Of a DNA stretch of 64,000 nucleotides, positions 2,505 to 61,825 are shown one piece after another (position 1 is the stretch's first letter; every line of letters begins with the position of its first letter). The notes under the pieces are model-generated. The model saw only the letters and a list, made by a program, of their open reading frames with translations. It was not told where the DNA came from and did no database searches. Position numbers and translations under genes: made by a program. This DNA comes from Alphaproteobacteria bacterium. Its GTDB lineage: Bacteria; Pseudomonadota; Alphaproteobacteria; SP197. The stretch spans positions 1,280,001 through 1,344,000 of the forward strand of contig OZ219920.1 in NCBI GenBank assembly GCA_964291415.2, given 5' to 3'.

Positions 2505-5500
2505 AGCAAGACGCTCGGCACCGTCAAGGCGATCCTTCACCCTGTCCCAGGAGCCGGTCACGACCAGCGTATGGTCAGGTCGCATCCTTGCCTTTCCATT
2601 CTGCCCGGTGATCCAGGAAATCAGTCGTTCCGGTTCAGCGAACGTCTCCTGGTGAAAGGCGACCACGGCGCCGAGCGGCCCGGCATCGAGCCGCGCAATT
2701 CCGGCACGTCGGCAGTCGCCCTTGATGGCAATGATTCGCAGCAGATTGTCGGCCTCCTCGGGAAGATCACCAAAGCGATCGACCAGTTCCTCTCTCAAAT
2801 CATCGATTCCGGCGCGATCCTCGAGGGCGGCAATGCGCCTGTAGAGAACGAGTCTCACATCAAGGTCGCGGACCCAGGTATCCGGAATCAGGACAGCAGA
2901 ACCGACACCCACTTCAGGAGACCAGGAATGCCGCGATTCCCGCAGCCGCCCTTCCTGTTCCGCACGAACCTTCTCGACCGCTTCCTCGACCATCTGCTGA
3001 TAGAGTTCCACTCCGACCTCGCGGATGTGACCGGACTGTTCCCGGCCGAGAAGATTGCCGGCGCCACGAATCTCGAGGTCGCGGCTTGCCAGCGAAAACC
3101 CGGCACCCAGTGAATCCATCTGGGACAGGGCCTTGAGGCGGCGCATCGCATCCTTGCCGGGTTTCATGCCGGGCGGCAACGTGATGTAGGCGTAGGCGCG
3201 CGCGCGCGAGCGTCCGATGCGCCCTCGCAACTGGTAGAGCTGCCCCAGCCCGAAGCGATCGCAACGGTGGATGATCATCGTGTTGGCATTGGGAATGTCG
3301 AGGCCCGACTGGATGATCGTGGTCGTGACCAGGACGTCGATCCGGCCATCGTAGAAGGCCGTCATGATGCTCTCGAGATTGTCTGGATCGAGCTTGCCGT
3401 GCGCCGAGGCAATTCGTGCTTCCGGAACCAGCTTCTGCAGATCCTTGCGCATGCGTCCGAGGTCCGCTGCCCTGGGGCACACGACATAGGTTTGGCCGCC
3501 CCGCACGCGTTCGCGCCTGATCGCCTCGCGAACGGTGACTGAATCGTACGTGCCTACAAATGTCCTGATGGCGAGTCGATCGACCGGCGGCGTGACGATG
3601 AGGCTAAGGTCACGCACTCCACTCAGGGCCATCTGCAGGGTCCGGGGTATCGGTGTCGCAGTCAGGGTGAGGACATGGACGTTGGTCTTGATCTGTTTGA
3701 GCTTTTCCTTGTGGGCCACGCCGAACTGCTGTTCTTCGTCGATCACCAGAAGGCCGAGGTTGGCGAAGGACATGGTGCGGGACAGCAGGGCGTGGGTGCC
3801 AATCACGATGTCGACGGTCCCGGCTGCCGCTCCCCTCTTTGCGCTGGCTGCCTCACCCGACGCCACGAGGCGGGACAGCAGGGCTATGTTGACGGGCAAG
3901 TGCCTGAACCGCTCGACAAAGGTCTCGTGGTGCTGCCGGGCAAGCAGTGTCGTGGGGGCCACCACTGCCACCTGGTATCCTTCAAGGACCGTGGCGAGTG
4001 CGGCGCGCAGAGCCACTTCGGTCTTGCCGAATCCGACGTCACCGCACACCAGCCGGTCCATGGCGTGGCCGGAAGCGAGGTCGTCGAACACCTCGCCAAT
4101 GGCTTTCGCCTGATCCTCGGTCTCCTCGTAGGGAAAGCGCGAGCAGAATTCCGCATACGTCTCCTCATCGACACGAATCACGGGGCCCGATTGCATGAGT
4201 CTCTCGGAGGCCGTCTTGAGAAGATCCCCCGCCATTTCCTCGATGCGACTGGCAAGACGCGCCTGGCGCGCCTGCCAGGCAGCGCTTCCAAGCCGGTCCA
4301 GCTGGACACGGGCATCGTGCGAACCGTAGCGGGACAGGGTGTCGATGTTCTCGACGGGCACCAGCAGCGCGTCACCGCCTGCATAGTGAACACGCAGACA
4401 GTCGTGCGGTGCGCCGCCAAGCGTGACGGTGTGAAGGCCCTCGAACACGCCGATACCGTGGTCGATGTGGACGACGTGGTCGCCCTCGGCGAGTTGCGAC
4501 ACCTCGAGAAGAAACCGTTCGGCATCGCGCTTCGTGCGACGCCGGCGTGGGGTCGTGATTCGGTCGCCGAGAATGTCCTGCTCGGCGACAACACTGAGGT
4601 CCATCGTCACAAACCCGTGTTCGAGCGGCAGAACGACGACGGGGACGGCTGAGTGCGGCATCCGGAGCCAGTCTTCCTCCCCTGCCTTGAGCACGTCAGC
4701 GACGCCGTGACTCTCCAGCATGGTCGCCAGATTGCCCTGGCTCGCCTCTCCCAGAGCCGCAACGATGACCCGACGGCCCTTCGACTTCTCGTCAGCGATG
4801 TGCCGGGCAACGGAATCGAAGAGCTGCATGCGGACATTCATGCGTTCAAGGCTGAAGTCCCGGGATCTCAGGCCACCGGCTTCGATCACTCTCCCGGATG
4901 TCGTGTCAGGGGTGTGAGCCAGCAGCCTGATCGCCGTGTGCGTCCGCGACATCGCCGTCCAGTCATCGATCGAAAGATAGAGACCATCGGGAGGCGGAGC
5001 GTGATAGGCGACGCCGTCATCCCCGTTTCCGGACGACCGGTGCTCGTAGTGGTCCTCAACGGTGTCCAGGTGGGCGCGCAACGCGTCCTCGACATCTCCG
5101 GTGAAGACCAGGATCCACTCCTCGCCAAGATAGTCGGGGAAGGTGTCGAGGGTCTGGTAAAACAGACCAAGCCAATGCTCCATACCCGGTGTCCGCATAC
5201 CCTCGATGGCCGATTCATAGACGGGATCGTTCAATGCATTCATGCCGAAGAGTTCGCGCCAGTGATCACGGAACTGCCTGATTGAGGCAGGATCGAGCGC
5301 GACCTCGCTCGCCGGGTCGATTGAGAGACTCTCCAGGAGTCCCGTCGAACGCTGGTTCAACGGATCGAAGGTGCGGATGCCGGTGATCTCGTCACCGAAG
5401 AAGTCGAGACGTGCGGGTTCGGCCATGGCGGGTGGAAAGACATCGAGAATATCACCCCGCGCCGCACAGTCTCCCTGCTCCATGACCACGCTTGTCCCGG

Positions 5501-59330: not shown

Positions 59331-59545
59331 CATGCGCGGCGAGCTGACACGCATTATCCTCATTCTCACACGGGCAGCATTCCGTAGCCGAGACCATGCT
59401 GGTGGAGGTAAAGAAGCGCGTTGCGCTGACGTTCCGGATCCCTTTCTTCCCCATTGTGGTCATCCTGTCGGGCCGGTGTGTCGGCGGCTCGCAGCTGGCG
59501 GGTTGAAGAACAGCTCTTGTCGACCTGTCCTGGATTCTCCAAATG
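59331..59545 (+). pseudogene. probable decayed type I RM hsdM fragment (left of the tnpB element)
   Basis: Translates RGELT...RDHAGGGKEARCADVPD and, in another frame, PGFSK. Resembles the HsdM RELT..I..TYHAWRG...YADVPGFCK segment (recalled consensus). Confidence 0.45.
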
Positions 59546-59553
59546 AATGCATG

Positions 59554-59578
59554 GGGAATTGTATACGAAACTTGACAG
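59554..59578 (+). repeat. left terminal inverted repeat
   Basis: Imperfect inverted copy at 60858-60882. Confidence 0.75.
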
Positions 59579-59614
59579 AATAGACTTGACATCCAATGGT
59601 GTTATCGATATGAA
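59572..59614 (+). promoter_or_regulatory. candidate tnpB promoter(s)
   Basis: Two TTGACA hexamers (59572, 59586) with AT-rich -10-like hexamers 17 bp downstream (AATGGT, TATGAA). GGAG RBS before ATG 59656. Confidence 0.45.
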
Positions 59615-59655
59615 TTCGTGTCGTAAATCAGTGTTCGCAACACCGGAGTCCCCGC

Positions 59656-60855
59656 ATGTCGTCCTCTGTCGCCTATCGACAGATCACCTTTCGCCTGCTG
59701 CCCGAGAAACGCAGCACCTGGCGGCGGCTGGAGGCCATGCTCGACACGCAGCGCTGTCTCTACAACGCGGCGCTGGAAGAACGGATCGACTGCTACCGGA
59801 AGACCGGCAAGTCACTCACCTACTTCGATCAGGCGAAGTCCCTGACCGTGTGCCGCGAGGCGCTGCCGGACATGGCGGCGGTGCCGGTGGCCATTCAGCG
59901 CGGGACGCTCAAGCGCCTCGATCATGCCTTCAAGGGCTTCTTCCGGCGGGTGAAGCAGGGTGGGGCCGGGTTCCCCCGGTTCCAGGGACGCCGGCACTTC
60001 AACAGCCTTTCCGTGGTCTCCGGCGTCAGGGTCGAGGGCAGTCGCCTGCGCATCCCCGGCCTGGGCTGGCTGACCATCCGCCGCCGGGGCGGCAATCCCT
60101 GGCCGCAGGGCACGCCGGTGAGTGCGGTCCTCAAGCGCGAGGAGGGACGCTGGAAGGCTGTGGTATGCCATGCGGTGTCGCTGCCGGAATCCGACGACAA
60201 CGGCCATGCCGTCGGCGTGGACGTGAATGCGGGCCAGGTGGCGACCTCGGACGGGGAGATCCTGCGCCTGGAGAGGAGCCGGCGTCTCGAGGCCCGTGCC
60301 CGGCGCTGCGCCAAGCAACTGGCGCGGCAGCGCCGTGGCAGCAGGCGGCGGGAGAAGACGCGGCGGCGTCTGGCGAAGACCACCCGGCACATGGCCATGA
60401 AGCGCCATGACTGGCAGCACCACGTCAGTCGCCGGCTCAGTGAGACGGCCGGGACGGTGGTGGTCGAGGATCTGAAGGTCCGCACCATGACCCGCAGCGC
60501 CAGGGGCACGAAGGAGGAGCCGGGACGTCACGTGCGCTCCAAGGCGGGTCTCAACCGCGTCATCCTGGAGACGGGCTGGTCGTCGTTCCGGAGAATGCTG
60601 GACTACAAGGTTCACCGCGTCATCGCGGTGAACCCGGCCTACAGCAGCCAGACCTGTGCAGCGTGCGGCGTCACGAGCGCCCAATCACGCAGGACGCGGG
60701 ACCTGTTTCAATGCGTGGCGTGCGGCCATGCGGATCACGCCGACCTCAATGCAGCGGCGAACATCCTGGCCTCGGGGACTGAGGCATCTGCGCGGGGAGG
60801 TTGCCGGGTTGCCGGGCCTGTGAACCGCGAAATCGATCGGAGGATGGCAGCATGA
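59656..60855 (+). CDS. tnpB: RNA-guided endonuclease TnpB (IS200/IS605 OrfB family), catalytic residues intact
   Basis: R.LYN.AL, GFPRF, RuvC-I VGVDVN, RuvC-II VVVEDL, VNPAYSSQ.C..CG, C..CG and RuvC-III HADLNAA.NI. Confidence 0.95.
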   Translation: MSSSVAYRQITFRLLPEKRSTWRRLEAMLDTQRCLYNAALEERIDCYRKTGKSLTYFDQAKSLTVCREALPDMAAVPVAIQRGTLKRLDHAFKGFFRRVKQGGAGFPRFQGRRHFNSLSVVSGVRVEGSRLRIPGLGWLTIRRRGGNPWPQGTPVSAVLKREEGRWKAVVCHAVSLPESDDNGHAVGVDVNAGQVATSDGEILRLERSRRLEARARRCAKQLARQRRGSRRREKTRRRLAKTTRHMAMKRHDWQHHVSRRLSETAGTVVVEDLKVRTMTRSARGTKEEPGRHVRSKAGLNRVILETGWSSFRRMLDYKVHRVIAVNPAYSSQTCAACGVTSAQSRRTRDLFQCVACGHADHADLNAAANILASGTEASARGGCRVAGPVNREIDRRMAA

Positions 60856-60900
60856 CGCTGTCAACTTCTCGATATAAGTCCCCATGAATAATCAGGGCTG
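60765..60900 (+). ncRNA. predicted omegaRNA (reRNA) overlapping the tnpB 3' end, guide in the right flank
   Basis: Hairpin GCCTC-GGGGACT-GAGGC whose loop is complementary to the terminal AGTCCCC, a CGCGG/CCGCG stem, and a long stem ATCGA..GGCAGC/GCTGTC..TCGAT. Boundaries approximate. Confidence 0.65.
60858..60882 (-). repeat. right terminal inverted repeat
   Basis: Inverted copy of 59554-59578. Confidence 0.75.
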
Positions 60901-61081
60901 CGTGCTAACGTTGGGCTGCCATGCTGGCGCGGCTCCTGTGGAGGACGACGACGAGCCGTTCGAGGACAAGACGCTATGCCTCGTCAAGCAATTGCGTGAA
61001 CAGCAGGCCGAAGGCTCGCGGCTGTACCGGACTATCGAAGCGAGTCTCGAGGTGCTGGGGTTCGGGAGTGGCGGATCGTGA
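60884..61081 (+). pseudogene. type I RM methyltransferase HsdM C-terminal remnant
   Basis: VLTLGCHAG....DDDEPFEDK...L..QLREQQAEG.RL...I..SL..LGF matches the HsdM tail VLTPGRYVG...DDGEPFEEKM..L...EQ.AE..RLD..I..NL..LG. Confidence 0.75.
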
Positions 61082-61503
61082 CTATCGACACAACATTCCT
61101 GCGACGCTGCATCGGCGTGCTGGAGTGTGCCTCGGAGGAAATCTGTGCACACGACGAGTCGGACGACTTCGTCTACGACATCTATCGCGCGGCCTGCGTC
61201 AAGGAGTTCGAGCTGGTTCTGGAGCAGAGTGGCAAGCTGCTGCGCAAACGACTCGCGGCTTACTTCGCCAGCAATCGGCGGGCGGACCGTCTGACATTCA
61301 GGGATCTCTTCCGTCATGCCGGGAAACACGGCTTGATGGAACCGGAAGCGGTCGAACGCTGGTTCCACTACCGCGACAACCGAAACGATACCGCGCATGA
61401 CTACGGCAAGGACTTCGCCGAAGCGACGCTCAAGCTGTTGCCTGCGTTCATCGCCGACGCGAAGGCGCTGGCCGACGCGATCGAGGCGGGAAACGATGGC
61501 TGA
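61078..61503 (+). CDS. HEPN domain nucleotidyltransferase substrate-binding protein (HI0074 family), putative toxin
   Basis: YRAACVKEFEL.LEQSGKLL, F.DLFR.A and W..YRDNRNDTAHDYG (RX4H plus Y). Confidence 0.88.
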   Translation: MTIDTTFLRRCIGVLECASEEICAHDESDDFVYDIYRAACVKEFELVLEQSGKLLRKRLAAYFASNRRADRLTFRDLFRHAGKHGLMEPEAVERWFHYRDNRNDTAHDYGKDFAEATLKLLPAFIADAKALADAIEAGNDG

Positions 61504-61825
61504 TCGGCTGCATCTGAAACCGGAGCATCGCCGTACCCTTGAGGCGCTGTTGCAGAAGCACCTGCCCAAGACCGAAGTCTGGGCCTACGGCAGTCGCGTG
61601 GACGGTCGGAGCCACGATGGCAGCGATCTCGATCTCGTTCTGCGCGGCCCGGGCCTGAAGGAGATTCCGATCCTTCAGCTCGGAGACTTCGAGGATGCTG
61701 TGCGGGAATCGAGCATCCCCTTCCTGGTCGAGGCCCGCGACTGGGCCCGTCTGCCAGAGCGGTTTCATCGGGAGATCGAGCGCAATCATGAGGTGTTCTA
61801 TCAACACAATGAACAAGGCAAATAG
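61496..61825 (+). CDS. minimal nucleotidyltransferase (MNT), putative antitoxin
   Basis: VWAYGSRV.G.SH.GSDLDL, S.IPF.V...DW and F..EI. Overlaps the HEPN stop. Confidence 0.9.
   Translation: MADRLHLKPEHRRTLEALLQKHLPKTEVWAYGSRVDGRSHDGSDLDLVLRGPGLKEIPILQLGDFEDAVRESSIPFLVEARDWARLPERFHREIERNHEVFYQHNEQGK

Follow-up and report, generated by a model that had tools for sequence, protein, structure and literature searches.

A tnpB element with IS1595-type ends and a predicted omegaRNA pseudoknot that shares the tip of the right terminal inverted repeat

A 1,329-bp element carrying tnpB and bounded by IS1595-type terminal inverted repeats (TIRs) was found at 59554-60882 of the window, a stretch of 64,000 nucleotides from an alphaproteobacterial genome. 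We consider it likely, taking the explanation as a whole, that this is a non-autonomous IS1595-type element with tnpB and an omegaRNA, that the pseudoknot of this RNA shares the tip of the right TIR, that the guide stems from the flanking DNA and that the element is moved in trans. Direct observations carry this reading: the ends, the TIRs, the target-site duplications (TSDs), a partner element with a transposase, the covariation of the RNA helices and a bias towards G beside the insertions. Cas12 descends from TnpB, whose biology is known in detail from IS605 and IS607; in these families, guide and TAM both follow from scarless excision together with a fixed target motif. Reviews ask why prokaryotic TnpBs rarely ride DDE transposons; rigid target recognition has been suggested as the obstacle.

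The element, its ends and its partner transposase

The boundaries (Table 1) were obtained by comparison of copies and from contigs of RNA libraries. Five copies of the element are present in the genome. Their comparison places the last element base at 60882 (…AAGTCCC); the following base is A, C, A and A in the other four copies, and C60883 already belongs to the flank. RNA-library contigs leave the window sequence exactly at 59554 and 60882, the right end being marked by three contigs from two runs that diverge after it. The TIRs are imperfect and about 25 bp long. Perfect 8-bp TSDs flank the other copies (AAAAAATG, CTTCCTTT, AATCGGAG and ATCGACAA). The window copy lacks an intact TSD (AATGCATG on the left versus CATGAATA on the right), and its two flanks represent non-contiguous DNA. 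In a census of 33 elements the TSDs agreed in 8/8 positions in 26 and in 7/8 positions in seven. The relative G002 contains an unoccupied homologous site with the same flanks as copy L002 and one single 8-mer; the empty-site comparison is readable for this pair only, the site for L003 offering just flanks of 66-71% identity that stop short of the junction.

Table 1. Features of the element and its flanks in window coordinates
Feature	Position	Strand	Evidence
G adjoining the left 8-mer on its 5' side, candidate TAM position	59545..59545	+	G at 32/33 independent insertions
Left flanking 8-mer AATGCATG, TSD copy of the original left-side insertion	59546..59553	+	5/8 identity with 60883-60890
Left TIR GGGAATTGTATACGAAACTTGACAG	59554..59578	+	copy comparison; RNA-library contig diverging before 59554; TIR pairing
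tnpB, 399 aa, RuvC D/E/D motifs and zinc-finger cysteines	59656..60855	+	Pfam, NCBIfam, alignment to 8h1j
Predicted omegaRNA scaffold, 114 nt	60769..60882	+	conserved in 71 nhmmer matches among fetched loci; helix covariation
SL1 hairpin, stem 60769-73/60781-85	60769..60785	+	98.8% of cells paired; pair 3:15 GC in 36 rows, CG in 13
P2 helix, 60791-95 with 60825-29, inner hairpin inside	60791..60829	+	94% paired; pair 39:79 AU in 35 rows, GC in 12; in MFE fold
SL3, base AUCG/CGAU 60836-39/60870-73, upper helix 60846-51/60857-62	60836..60873	+	84.3% (base) and 85.8% (upper helix) paired
Right TIR, reverse complement GGGACTTATATCGAGAAGTTGACAG	60858..60882	+	copy comparison; TIR pairing; contigs diverging after 60882
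TIR tip AGTCCC, 3' strand of predicted pseudoknot	60877..60882	+	loop/tip covariation
Predicted guide CAUGAAUAAUCAGGGCUGCG	60883..60902	+	inferred; first base differing between copies; start ±1, length assumed 16-20 nt
hsdM C-terminal remnant	60884..61081	+	52% identity to residues 484-537 of G010 HsdM, E 2e-15

The sole gene of the element is tnpB: the ORF list and Pfam gave no reading frame for a transposase or recombinase in the 1,329 bp, and a promoter and terminator scan found neither a sigma-70-like promoter nor an intrinsic terminator. The protein scored above the cutoffs of the Pfam models OrfB_IS605 (48.6 bits, cutoff 30.5) and Cas12f1-like_TNB (67.5, cutoff 26.3) and of the NCBIfam model guided_TnpB (205.4 bits, cutoff 100), and it aligned over its full length to the TnpB of ISDra2 (8h1j, E 2e-33). 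The alignment contains GVDVN, VVVEDL and HADLNAA as well as CAAC…CVAC; the motifs were called present by the residues D-E-D, which we take to be the catalytic RuvC residues of ISDra2 TnpB. The 399-aa reading frame was intact in all seven other copies checked. In the right flank, an hsdM remnant had been recognized by an earlier reading from the sequence alone, and the similarity to HsdM of the relative G010, a protein of 542 aa with N6_Mtase and HsdM_N domains, bears this out.

The element is not of IS605 type. Assignment to the IS200/IS605 family, including the IS1341 group, was rejected on the presence of 25-bp TIRs and 8-bp TSDs and on an NCBIfam IS200_TnpB score of 161 bits, below the cutoff of 425. 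The IS607 family was rejected on the TIRs and TSDs, the lack of a recombinase ORF and an IS607_TnpB score of 96.6 bits, below the NCBIfam cutoff of 350.

The same genome holds a partner element (L018; G000:C2:46358-49518) with the TIRs GGGGATTATATACTGA(A/G)(C/T)TTGACAAG. It encodes a DDE_Tnp_IS1595 transposase (Pfam 1e-36; NCBIfam transpos_IS1595 187 bits, cutoff 75) with an N-terminal Zn ribbon, and its right TIR matches the left TIR of copy L004 in 23 of the first 24 bases. Two other TnpB subfamilies own cognate transposase elements with matching TIRs. Positions 2 and 7 of the TSD are occupied by A or T in 32/33 and 30/33 of the TnpB elements and in 11/12 and 11/12 of the transposase elements; on the transposase loci, the TIR/TSD finder yielded clean elements in 12 of 50, the rest being chance pairs or longer than the fetched DNA. 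Merlin elements are the eukaryotic relatives of IS1595 (ISXO2-like DDE). On these sequence features the element is a non-autonomous relative of IS1595 and not an IS proper, since it encodes only tnpB. It is probably moved in trans by an IS1595-family transposase, because its ends match an IS1595-family element in the same genome; the TIRs and the W2/W7 pattern of the TSDs, common to both classes, point to the same mobilisation. TIRs starting with GG, AT-rich TSDs of 8 bp and a cognate transposase with Zn ribbon and DDE_Tnp_IS1595 domain agree with the IS1595 family, which is characterized by 8-bp TSDs and a Zn-finger DDE transposase (PMC8101967). Unlike the family, the element is without a transposase and carries as passenger an RNA-guided nuclease whose RNA would make use of the TIR. 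The IS1595 type was absent from the sequence-only reading.

The conserved G beside the insertion

Among independent insertions with a TSD of at least 7/8 identity, the base 5' of the left TSD (position -1) was G in 32 of 33 cases, compared with a background frequency of 27.5% (binomial p 3e-17); the window copy presents this base, G59545, only with the left end placed at 59554, not at 59553. The mirror position at the right end had G in 15/33 (Fisher p 4e-6 versus the left end), and the cognate transposase-bearing elements had G at 6/24 ends (Fisher p 7e-9). The G holds across TnpBs that are only 28-40% identical to each other. From these counts the G at -1 is a candidate one-base TAM, and its place fits the sequence-only reading, which had expected a TAM upstream of the duplicated bases. 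A TAM of one base is unusually short.

The one-sided G may alternatively reflect the target choice of the mobilising transposase and not a TAM of TnpB, either by an asymmetric transpososome assembled on unequal TIRs or by an unsampled subfamily with a preference for G-N8-C. We regard this as rather unlikely. The TIRs of the TnpB elements are indeed unequal, with 13-21 of 22 positions identical. Two distant IS1595 families in G030 have a strong preference for symmetric A-N8-T flanks, with A at -1 in 11/12 and T at +1 in 10/12, thus a transposase is able to read the position adjoining the TSD. C shows a mild excess at the mirror position of the TnpB elements (15/33, p 0.02), and part of the G bias may therefore stem from the transposase. 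However, the preferences in G030 are symmetric, while the two sides of the TnpB elements differ strongly, and the cognate transposase elements, which share TIR types and W2/W7 pattern with them, show no comparable frequency of G. The G is found on the side required of a TnpB TAM, and its conservation among such divergent TnpBs also argues for the TAM.

The predicted omegaRNA, its pseudoknot and the guide

The last 114 nt of the element are predicted to be the scaffold of an omegaRNA with an ISDra2-like architecture. The scaffold has a minimum free energy (MFE) of -50.8 kcal/mol (z -2.6). Rfam searched in evalue mode with 59400-61100 gave only two chance snoRNA-like matches (E 5-9). RNAalifold on alignment A3 returned SL1 alone, owing to a misaligned middle part in the L039 family; named structures were used to test the other helices. 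The L050 family (five loci, whose scaffolds measure about 152-164 nt and contain a second hairpin) was left out of all alignments, and the longer loops of the L048 family were misplaced by MAFFT (A1, A2), so that eight rows were removed from the A3 count and scored by anchored extraction. RNA-library contigs from four of seven runs were compared with the window; they are silent on RNA ends, strand and level, and continue 145-200 nt beyond the tip.

The hairpin GCCTC (60769-73), GGGGACT (60774-80), GAGGC (60781-85) lies exactly where the sequence-only reading had drawn it. A long second stem proposed there was retained in its upper helix, which also varies in a compensated manner (pair 101:111, GC in 16 rows and AU in 14). 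Its lower register, ATCGA/TCGAT with GGAG/CTTC, is paired in 56.5% of cells and was replaced by the AUCG/CGAU base of SL3 (Table 1). The stop codon of tnpB (60853-55) sits in the loop of SL3.

The 7-nt loop of SL1 is the reverse complement of AGTCCCC at 60877-60883, as had been noted before. Since the element ends at 60882 and C60883 is flank, only six of these pairs are encoded by the element, between the loop bases GGGACU (60775-60780), the 5' strand of the predicted pseudoknot, and AGUCCC. Covariation between loop and terminus across homologues, proposed earlier as a check on the pseudoknot, was found: in 51 homologous scaffolds the pairing is kept in 91.7% of cells, compared to 34-68% with the partner slid by 1-3 columns, and 11 cells had changed on both sides, a number that none of 500 shuffles attained (2.4±1.3). 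Double changes occur at three of the six pairs. One pair varies between C:G, U:A and A:U, with G·U intermediates, among TnpB relatives of 28-100% identity. Five haplotypes of loop and tip are fully Watson-Crick paired: GGGACT/AGTCCC (19 sequences), GGGATT/AATCCC (3), GGGAAT/ATTCCC (5), GGGACA/TGTCCC (2) and GGGGAT/ATCCCC (1). Six standard pairs are formed in 35 of 59 sequences; in the other 24 the 6-bp pseudoknot is imperfect, with one non-pair in 18 scaffolds and two in 6. In some lineages the tip has changed and the loop has not (L032; L033/L036 with A·C), and the five loci of the L050 family pair in register at 3-5 positions only. The MFE fold of the window family lengthens SL1 by 2 bp into the loop, in competition with the pseudoknot. 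The loop is nearer to the right tip in 18 of 31 elements, nearer to the left TIR in one and tied in 12. In these alignments the pairing of loop and tip is beyond chance. Loop and tip covary, the loop tracks the right tip and the geometry is that of ISDra2; together this supports the earlier suggestion that the tip of the right TIR forms the 3' strand of an omegaRNA pseudoknot, and it would place the guide in the right flank from 60883 (±1), here within the hsdM remnant. For ISXfa1 TnpB a pseudoknot is needed for activity (PMC10711439).

The guide would thus open with the TSD. The ISDra2 pseudoknot is followed by one unpaired base (-1) before the guide begins (PMC10097598), and a guide start at 60884 could correspond to this arrangement. 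The 16-mer at the guide position has no second perfect match in the genome. For Fanzors in eukaryotic TIR/TSD transposons, the 3' TSD is reported to be a component of the scaffold and the 5' TSD a component of the TAM (PMC10711439, PMC13565253). Such an arrangement, with the right TSD copy belonging to the scaffold, the guide starting at about 60891 and the TAM inside the left TSD, is improbable for the element described here. Its TSD of 8 bp is variable, with only W at positions 2 and 7 kept and a last base of T (11), G (9), A (8) or C (5) in 33 insertions, hence it is unable to supply a fixed scaffold or TAM. The location of the ISDra2 pseudoknot within 1 nt of the guide (PMC10097598) speaks against a TSD in the scaffold, and the conserved base outside the TSD, at -1, against a TAM inside it.

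The resemblance of loop and tip might also have its origin in the DNA, as an internal copy of the TIR tip that serves as transposase-binding site, and not in RNA pairing. Subterminal transposase-binding repeats are common in transposons and would suit such a copy, and the loop resembles the tip of the left TIR by construction (GGGGACT versus GGGGATT). This origin is nevertheless very unlikely: the likeness ends after 6-7 nt, in most elements that differ it is the right tip and not the left TIR that the loop fits better, and transitions yield G·U pairs, as with the AGTTCC tip of 4 sequences and in L046, where a GGGATT loop faces AGTCCC. Furthermore, the site occupies the loop of a hairpin that covaries and corresponds in position to the pseudoknot strand of ISDra2, and no such internal tip copy was seen on reading the transposase-bearing cognate L018.

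A tnpB-only element of IS605/IS1341 type that ends at TCAA (60865), with the guide from 60866, may be suggested by the resemblance to ISDra2 TnpB and by the TCAA itself, but has practically no likelihood, since 60866-60882 is conserved in every copy across different loci, which excludes the guide start after TCAA that the sequence-only reading had named as counter-evidence, and since TIRs, 8-bp TSDs and the low IS200_TnpB score contradict this type. The TCAA (60862-65), mentioned earlier as the usual mark of an IS605 end, is part of TTGACA, the inner motif of the TIR, and no IS605 cleavage site.

Known systems and the proposed mechanism

The element shares with ISDra2 (IS200/IS605; solved structures 8H1J / 8EXA) a TnpB that aligns over the full length and a scaffold that overlaps the 3' end of tnpB. 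In ISDra2, too, a pseudoknot is formed between the loop of the first hairpin and the end of the scaffold, just before the flank-derived guide; the ISDra2 scaffold has 116 nt, and its pseudoknot joins -5..-3 to -103..-105, compared to 114 nt and a loop at -109..-103 in the element (PMC10097598). In contrast to the element, ISDra2 has no TIRs and no TSDs, is moved by a Y1 TnpA and has a 5-nt TAM, TTGAT, identical to the TnpA target. For the element, the 3' strand of the pseudoknot would be the tip of a DDE TIR, the guide would open with an 8-bp TSD, and one G is the only conserved flank base.

TnpBs associated with DDE transposons have been described before. The branches DDE-1 to DDE-6 described by Altae-Tran et al. 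2023 have inverted terminal repeats, a tnpB 3' end at most 250 bp from the element end and solo TnpBs that share their ends with transposase-bearing elements, implying trans-mobilisation (PMC10691335). The element resembles these branches in its inverted repeats, in a tnpB near the end and in being a solo TnpB with the ends of a transposase element; it differs in that omegaRNA structure, relation of TSD and guide, and TAM are not part of the text of PMC10691335. The main text of that study names only IS630 and contains 'IS1595' and 'ISXO2' 0 times, its supplements may list the family, and a 2026 review (PMC13565253) cites it for ISL2, IS630 and IS1031. A literature search on TnpB with IS1595 or ISXO2 retrieved nothing on such elements, and a search combining TnpB, DDE, TSD, TAM and TIR gave nothing on prokaryotic DDE-TnpB guide RNAs among the matches listed. 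With the reservation on these supplements, the search found neither the link of TnpB to IS1595 nor the dual use of the tip nor the G at -1 in print. The reRNAs of Fanzors and TnpBs in IS607 and in eukaryotic TIR/TSD transposons (Yoon et al. 2023, PMC10711439) are similar in that the scaffold adapts to what the transposase demands of the sequence at the transposon end and in that the pseudoknot is kept whatever the transposon association. They absorb a flanking nucleotide or a fixed TSD into the scaffold, whereas in the element the variable TSD is most likely part of the guide.

In the mechanism that we propose, tnpB and a matching omegaRNA would occupy the place of the DDE transposase in an IS1595-type element, and the element would be moved in trans by an IS1595-family transposase from other loci, where elements with almost the same ends encode it. 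The GGGACU loop would pair with the last six bases, AGUCCC, to a pseudoknot adjoining the guide. Because the same six bases are TIR tip and pseudoknot strand, they would be under a double constraint, and the right TIR would have drifted away from the left TIR while staying complementary to the loop. Transcription would continue into the flank, so that the guide would open with the right TSD copy (60883 ±1). The target would be the unoccupied site, consisting of G, one TSD copy and the right flank, with the conserved G 5' of the TSD as minimal TAM. The occupied site would be spared, because there the base before the guide match is the invariant C of the tip. RNA ends, start and length of the guide, TAM function, trans-mobilisation and homing are what we infer in this mechanism. 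Tentatively, and as a possibility we would not put at even chances, the TAM of TnpB may have been cut to a single G outside the variable 8-bp TSD, with essentially only G-adjoining insertions persisting and the right TIR remodelled as pseudoknot strand. If true, an RNA-guided nuclease and not the transposase would decide which cut-and-paste insertions survive, via homing into unoccupied alleles. The clade would then be a testable solution for TnpB on a DDE transposon: the tip of the TIR doubling as 3' strand keeps the pseudoknot, the guide opens with the variable TSD, and a single base beyond the TSD is left as TAM. In addition, the clade is a source of compact nucleases whose TAM may be close to minimal.

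TnpBs of this clade are present in Alphaproteobacteria, Gammaproteobacteria, Thermodesulfobacteriota, Spirochaetia and Dehalococcoidia. A quick tree of the TnpB relatives (39 rows, calculated without L043 and L044, which have less than 300 aa) is compatible with one origin as well as with several, the label 'IS1595 TIR' needing 2-3 changes on it.

A probable IS1595-type element carrying tnpB

Alignment of copies and flanks gave the element termini GGG(G)AATTGTATAC… and …TCGATATAAGTCCC, which make an imperfect 25-bp terminal inverted repeat (TIR). The genome holds three more full copies besides that of the window, a fifth interrupted by a 1.8-kb insert, and fragments (17 matches in the copy search, fragments included). 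Direct repeats of 8 bp are present at four copies: AAAAAATG, CTTCCTTT, AATCGGAG and ATCGACAA. RNA-library contigs of three studies depart from the window sequence precisely before 59554 and after 60882 into other flanks, and a relative, G002, has the site of locus L002 unoccupied, with a single 8-mer between the same two flanks. Copy alignment, contig divergence and empty site thus assign base 60883 to the flank. The sequence-only reading had described a hairpin GCCTC-GGGGACT-GAGGC (60769-60785) whose loop is complementary to AGTCCCC (60877-60883) at the tip of the right TIR; both motifs are present as written, but the last base of the heptamer is flank, not element. The TIRs, the 8-bp target-site duplications (TSDs) and the end at 60882 rule out an element of IS605 or IS607 type, and the TCAA taken as an IS605 end mark proved to be part of the TTGACA motif of the TIR. 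The encoded TnpB scores 205 bits against NCBIfam guided_TnpB (cutoff 100) and aligns over its full length with the solved ISDra2 TnpB (8h1j, E 2e-33); it retains both CxxC pairs and the RuvC D/E/D motifs.

An ORF scan found no transposase ORF within the element. A genome scan for the TIR motif revealed a 3.16-kb element with nearly the same TIRs that encodes a Zn-ribbon and DDE_Tnp_IS1595 transposase (Pfam 1e-36; NCBIfam transpos_IS1595 187 bits, cutoff 75), and 8-bp TSDs are a described trait of the IS1595 family (PMC8101967). The best reading of the tnpB element is that of a non-autonomous member of IS1595 type, which would be mobilised in trans. Relatives of its TnpB were obtained from 68 loci (28-95 % identity). 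Of the 39 loci on the TnpB tree, 31 have IS1595-like TIRs (GGGRNTTATATAC…) around tnpB, and none were found at the other eight; the hosts include Alphaproteobacteria, Gammaproteobacteria, Thermodesulfobacteriota, Spirochaetia and Dehalococcoidia. TIR variants differ between TnpB subfamilies, each variant having matching transposase-bearing elements in related genomes, and A/T at TSD positions 2 and 7 is common to both kinds of element. The 3.16-kb element is followed head to tail by a second IS1595-family element (2,468 bp, TIRs 22/22 identical) beginning 8 bp past its tip; within the first lies a 464-aa passenger ORF whose N-terminus is lipoprotein-like and which matched no Pfam or NCBIfam model.

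DDE-linked TnpBs are published. Altae-Tran et al. 2023 (PMC10691335) described six DDE-transposase-associated TnpB branches with inverted terminal repeats, some solo TnpBs being apparently mobilised in trans; IS630 is the sole family named in the main text, while a 2026 review lists ISL2, IS630 and IS1031 (PMC13565253). Our literature search found nothing on an IS1595-linked TnpB, a family that supplementary files may list, nothing on a TIR tip serving as pseudoknot strand and nothing on a target motif (TAM) outside a variable TSD.

Features of the tnpB element and of related loci (bare positions refer to the window; pairing counts from alignment A3)
Feature	Position	Details
Element	59554 (±1)-60882	1,329 bp
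tnpB ORF	59656-60855	399 aa; Pfam OrfB_IS605 and Cas12f1-like_TNB matches
Predicted omegaRNA scaffold	60769-60882	114 nt
Loop GGGACU	60775-60780	
Tip AGTCCC	60877-60882	
SL1 helix		98.8 % of cells paired; pair 3:15 GC 36 / CG 13
P2 helix		94 % of cells paired; pair 39:79 AU 35 / GC 12
SL3 upper helix		85.8 % of cells paired; pair 101:111 GC 16 / AU 14
SL3 base AUCG / CGAU	60836-60839 / 60870-60873	84.3 % of cells paired
Loop-tip pseudoknot		91.7 % of cells paired; AU 39 / GC 4; CG 38 / UA 3 / AU 1 / UG 1; UA 37 / AU 3
HEPN/MNT-like gene pair	61078-61825	
3.16-kb IS1595 element	G000:C2:46358-49518	
Two IS1595-family elements	G000:C2:46358-52000	L018, L163
Interrupted copy	G000:C2:85682-87486	L005, about 2681-4180
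Scaffold pieces	G000:C2:344616-344684; G000:C4:1169369-1169437	L011; L012
Third copy of the ~310-bp repeat	C4:883416-883589	
Solo right-end fragment	G000:C1:829080-829121	L017

Predicted pairing of the SL1 loop with the right TIR tip

With nhmmer, 71 copies of the element's 3' region were recovered from the fetched loci. Alignment A1 comprised 59 scaffolds (48 distinct full-length, 11 more distant); helix pairing counts and the shuffle test were run on A3, the 51 rows left after removal of eight L048-family rows, whose longer loops MAFFT could not register. Loop and terminus covary across homologues: the loop-tip helix contains 11 double-change cells, a count attained by none of 500 shuffles (2.4±1.3), and pairing falls to 34-68 % if the partner is slid out of register. 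Anchored extraction from all 59 scaffolds yielded five different fully Watson-Crick loop/tip combinations. Six standard pairs are formed in 35 scaffolds (30 of them all Watson-Crick), 18 have one non-pair and six have two. Departures from C:G at pair 5 occurred in at least three separate lineages of a quick TnpB tree (L025, L039/L070, the L048 clade); L096, absent from this tree, is a further departure by ωRNA family. Alternatively, the loop could be an internal copy of the TIR. Among 31 elements whose left and right tips differ, it fits the right tip in 18, the left in one and both equally in 12, which argues for RNA pairing and against such a copy. With this tracking and the covariation, the principal claim of the sequence-only reading holds, namely that the right TIR tip forms the 3' strand of an omegaRNA pseudoknot. 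The register proposed there for the lower part of the second stem was paired in just 56.5 % of cells (A3).

Loop-tip complementarity is real. Against the pseudoknot stand uncompensated changes in several lineages, poor pairing in the L050 family (five loci, outside the alignments) and the MFE fold of the window family, which adds two SL1 pairs from loop bases. The L050 family (L050, L051, L055, L062, L068; Paracoccaceae) is a TnpB subfamily that shares this TIR type and has a longer 3' region (152-164 nt), in which two successive hairpins have GGGA in both loops; either may pair with the tip. The geometry agrees with that of the ISDra2 omegaRNA, which is described with a 116-nt scaffold and a pseudoknot of -5 to -3 (plus non-canonical -6 and -2) with -103 to -105 in the stem 1 loop (PMC10097598); in the 114-nt scaffold studied here, the loop is at -109 to -103. 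Yoon et al. 2023 (PMC10711439) showed the pseudoknot to be essential; in IS607 and eukaryotic elements, they found scaffolds adapted to the ends of the transposon.

Guide start and candidate TAM

Bases 60866-60882 are invariant between copies, which excludes a guide starting after TCAA at 60866. By homology, the guide would begin in the flank at 60883, or at 60884 with one unpaired base between as in ISDra2; the guide of intact copies would thus open with the TSD. Five 16-nt guides each had their own locus as sole perfect match in the genome. In a census of 33 independent insertions (TSD identity at least 7/8), G was found just 5' of the left TSD in 32 (background G 27.5 %, binomial p 3e-17). 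Position -2 was T in 15, C in 9, G in 6 and A in 3, and TSD position 1 was G in none of the 33. At the mirror position of the right end, the equivalent of G occurs in 15/33 (Fisher p 4e-6 versus the left side), and the 12 cognate transposase-bearing elements have G at 6/24 ends (Fisher p 7e-9), or at 7 by an alternative parse of the ambiguous L167. Given the unoccupied site as target, the G at -1 would occupy the place of the TnpB TAM and is a candidate for this role; in the occupied site, the base preceding the guide match is the invariant C of the tip. The transposase may contribute to the G bias. In genome G030, the 8-bp TSDs of two distant multi-copy IS1595-type families (L204-L221; TIRs CGCGATTATCAACTTGACACGT and CCTGCTTATCC…) have symmetrical neighbours, A to the left in 11/12 and T to the right in 10/12. 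The implied target preference extends one base past the TSD, so a transposase can read the adjacent position.

The window copy and fragments elsewhere in the genome

The window copy is an exception among the copies, as its flanking 8-mers disagree (left AATGCATG, right CATGAATA, identical at only 5/8 positions). The right flank had been read as an hsdM remnant, and indeed represents the last 50-odd codons (52 % identity to residues 484-537 of the 542-aa HsdM of a relative, E 2e-15); a dehydrogenase gene adjoins the left flank. The two sides thus do not derive from one continuous stretch of DNA, suggesting a deletion or a recombination between two copies. The hsdM remnant is separated from a 429-aa ORF by a HEPN/MNT-like pair of genes, one for a nucleotidyltransferase substrate-binding protein and one for a nucleotidyltransferase. 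Beyond this pair, Pfam gave no match for the 429-aa ORF; the ORF at the equivalent position in genome G010 has a Methylase_S (HsdS) domain.

A solo diverged right-end fragment (…CGTCAACTTCTCGAAGTCAGTCCC) has no tnpB upstream. Two loci hold a 70-nt scaffold piece (SL1 and P2, window 60768-60835; 91-94 % identical) without tnpB or TIR tip, embedded in a different repeat of ~310 bp, whose third copy lacks the piece; in run X1, one RNA-library contig links this repeat to the scaffold piece. The interrupted copy is split at the equivalent of window 60746, and its 1.8-kb insert encodes an IS110-family DEDD transposase.
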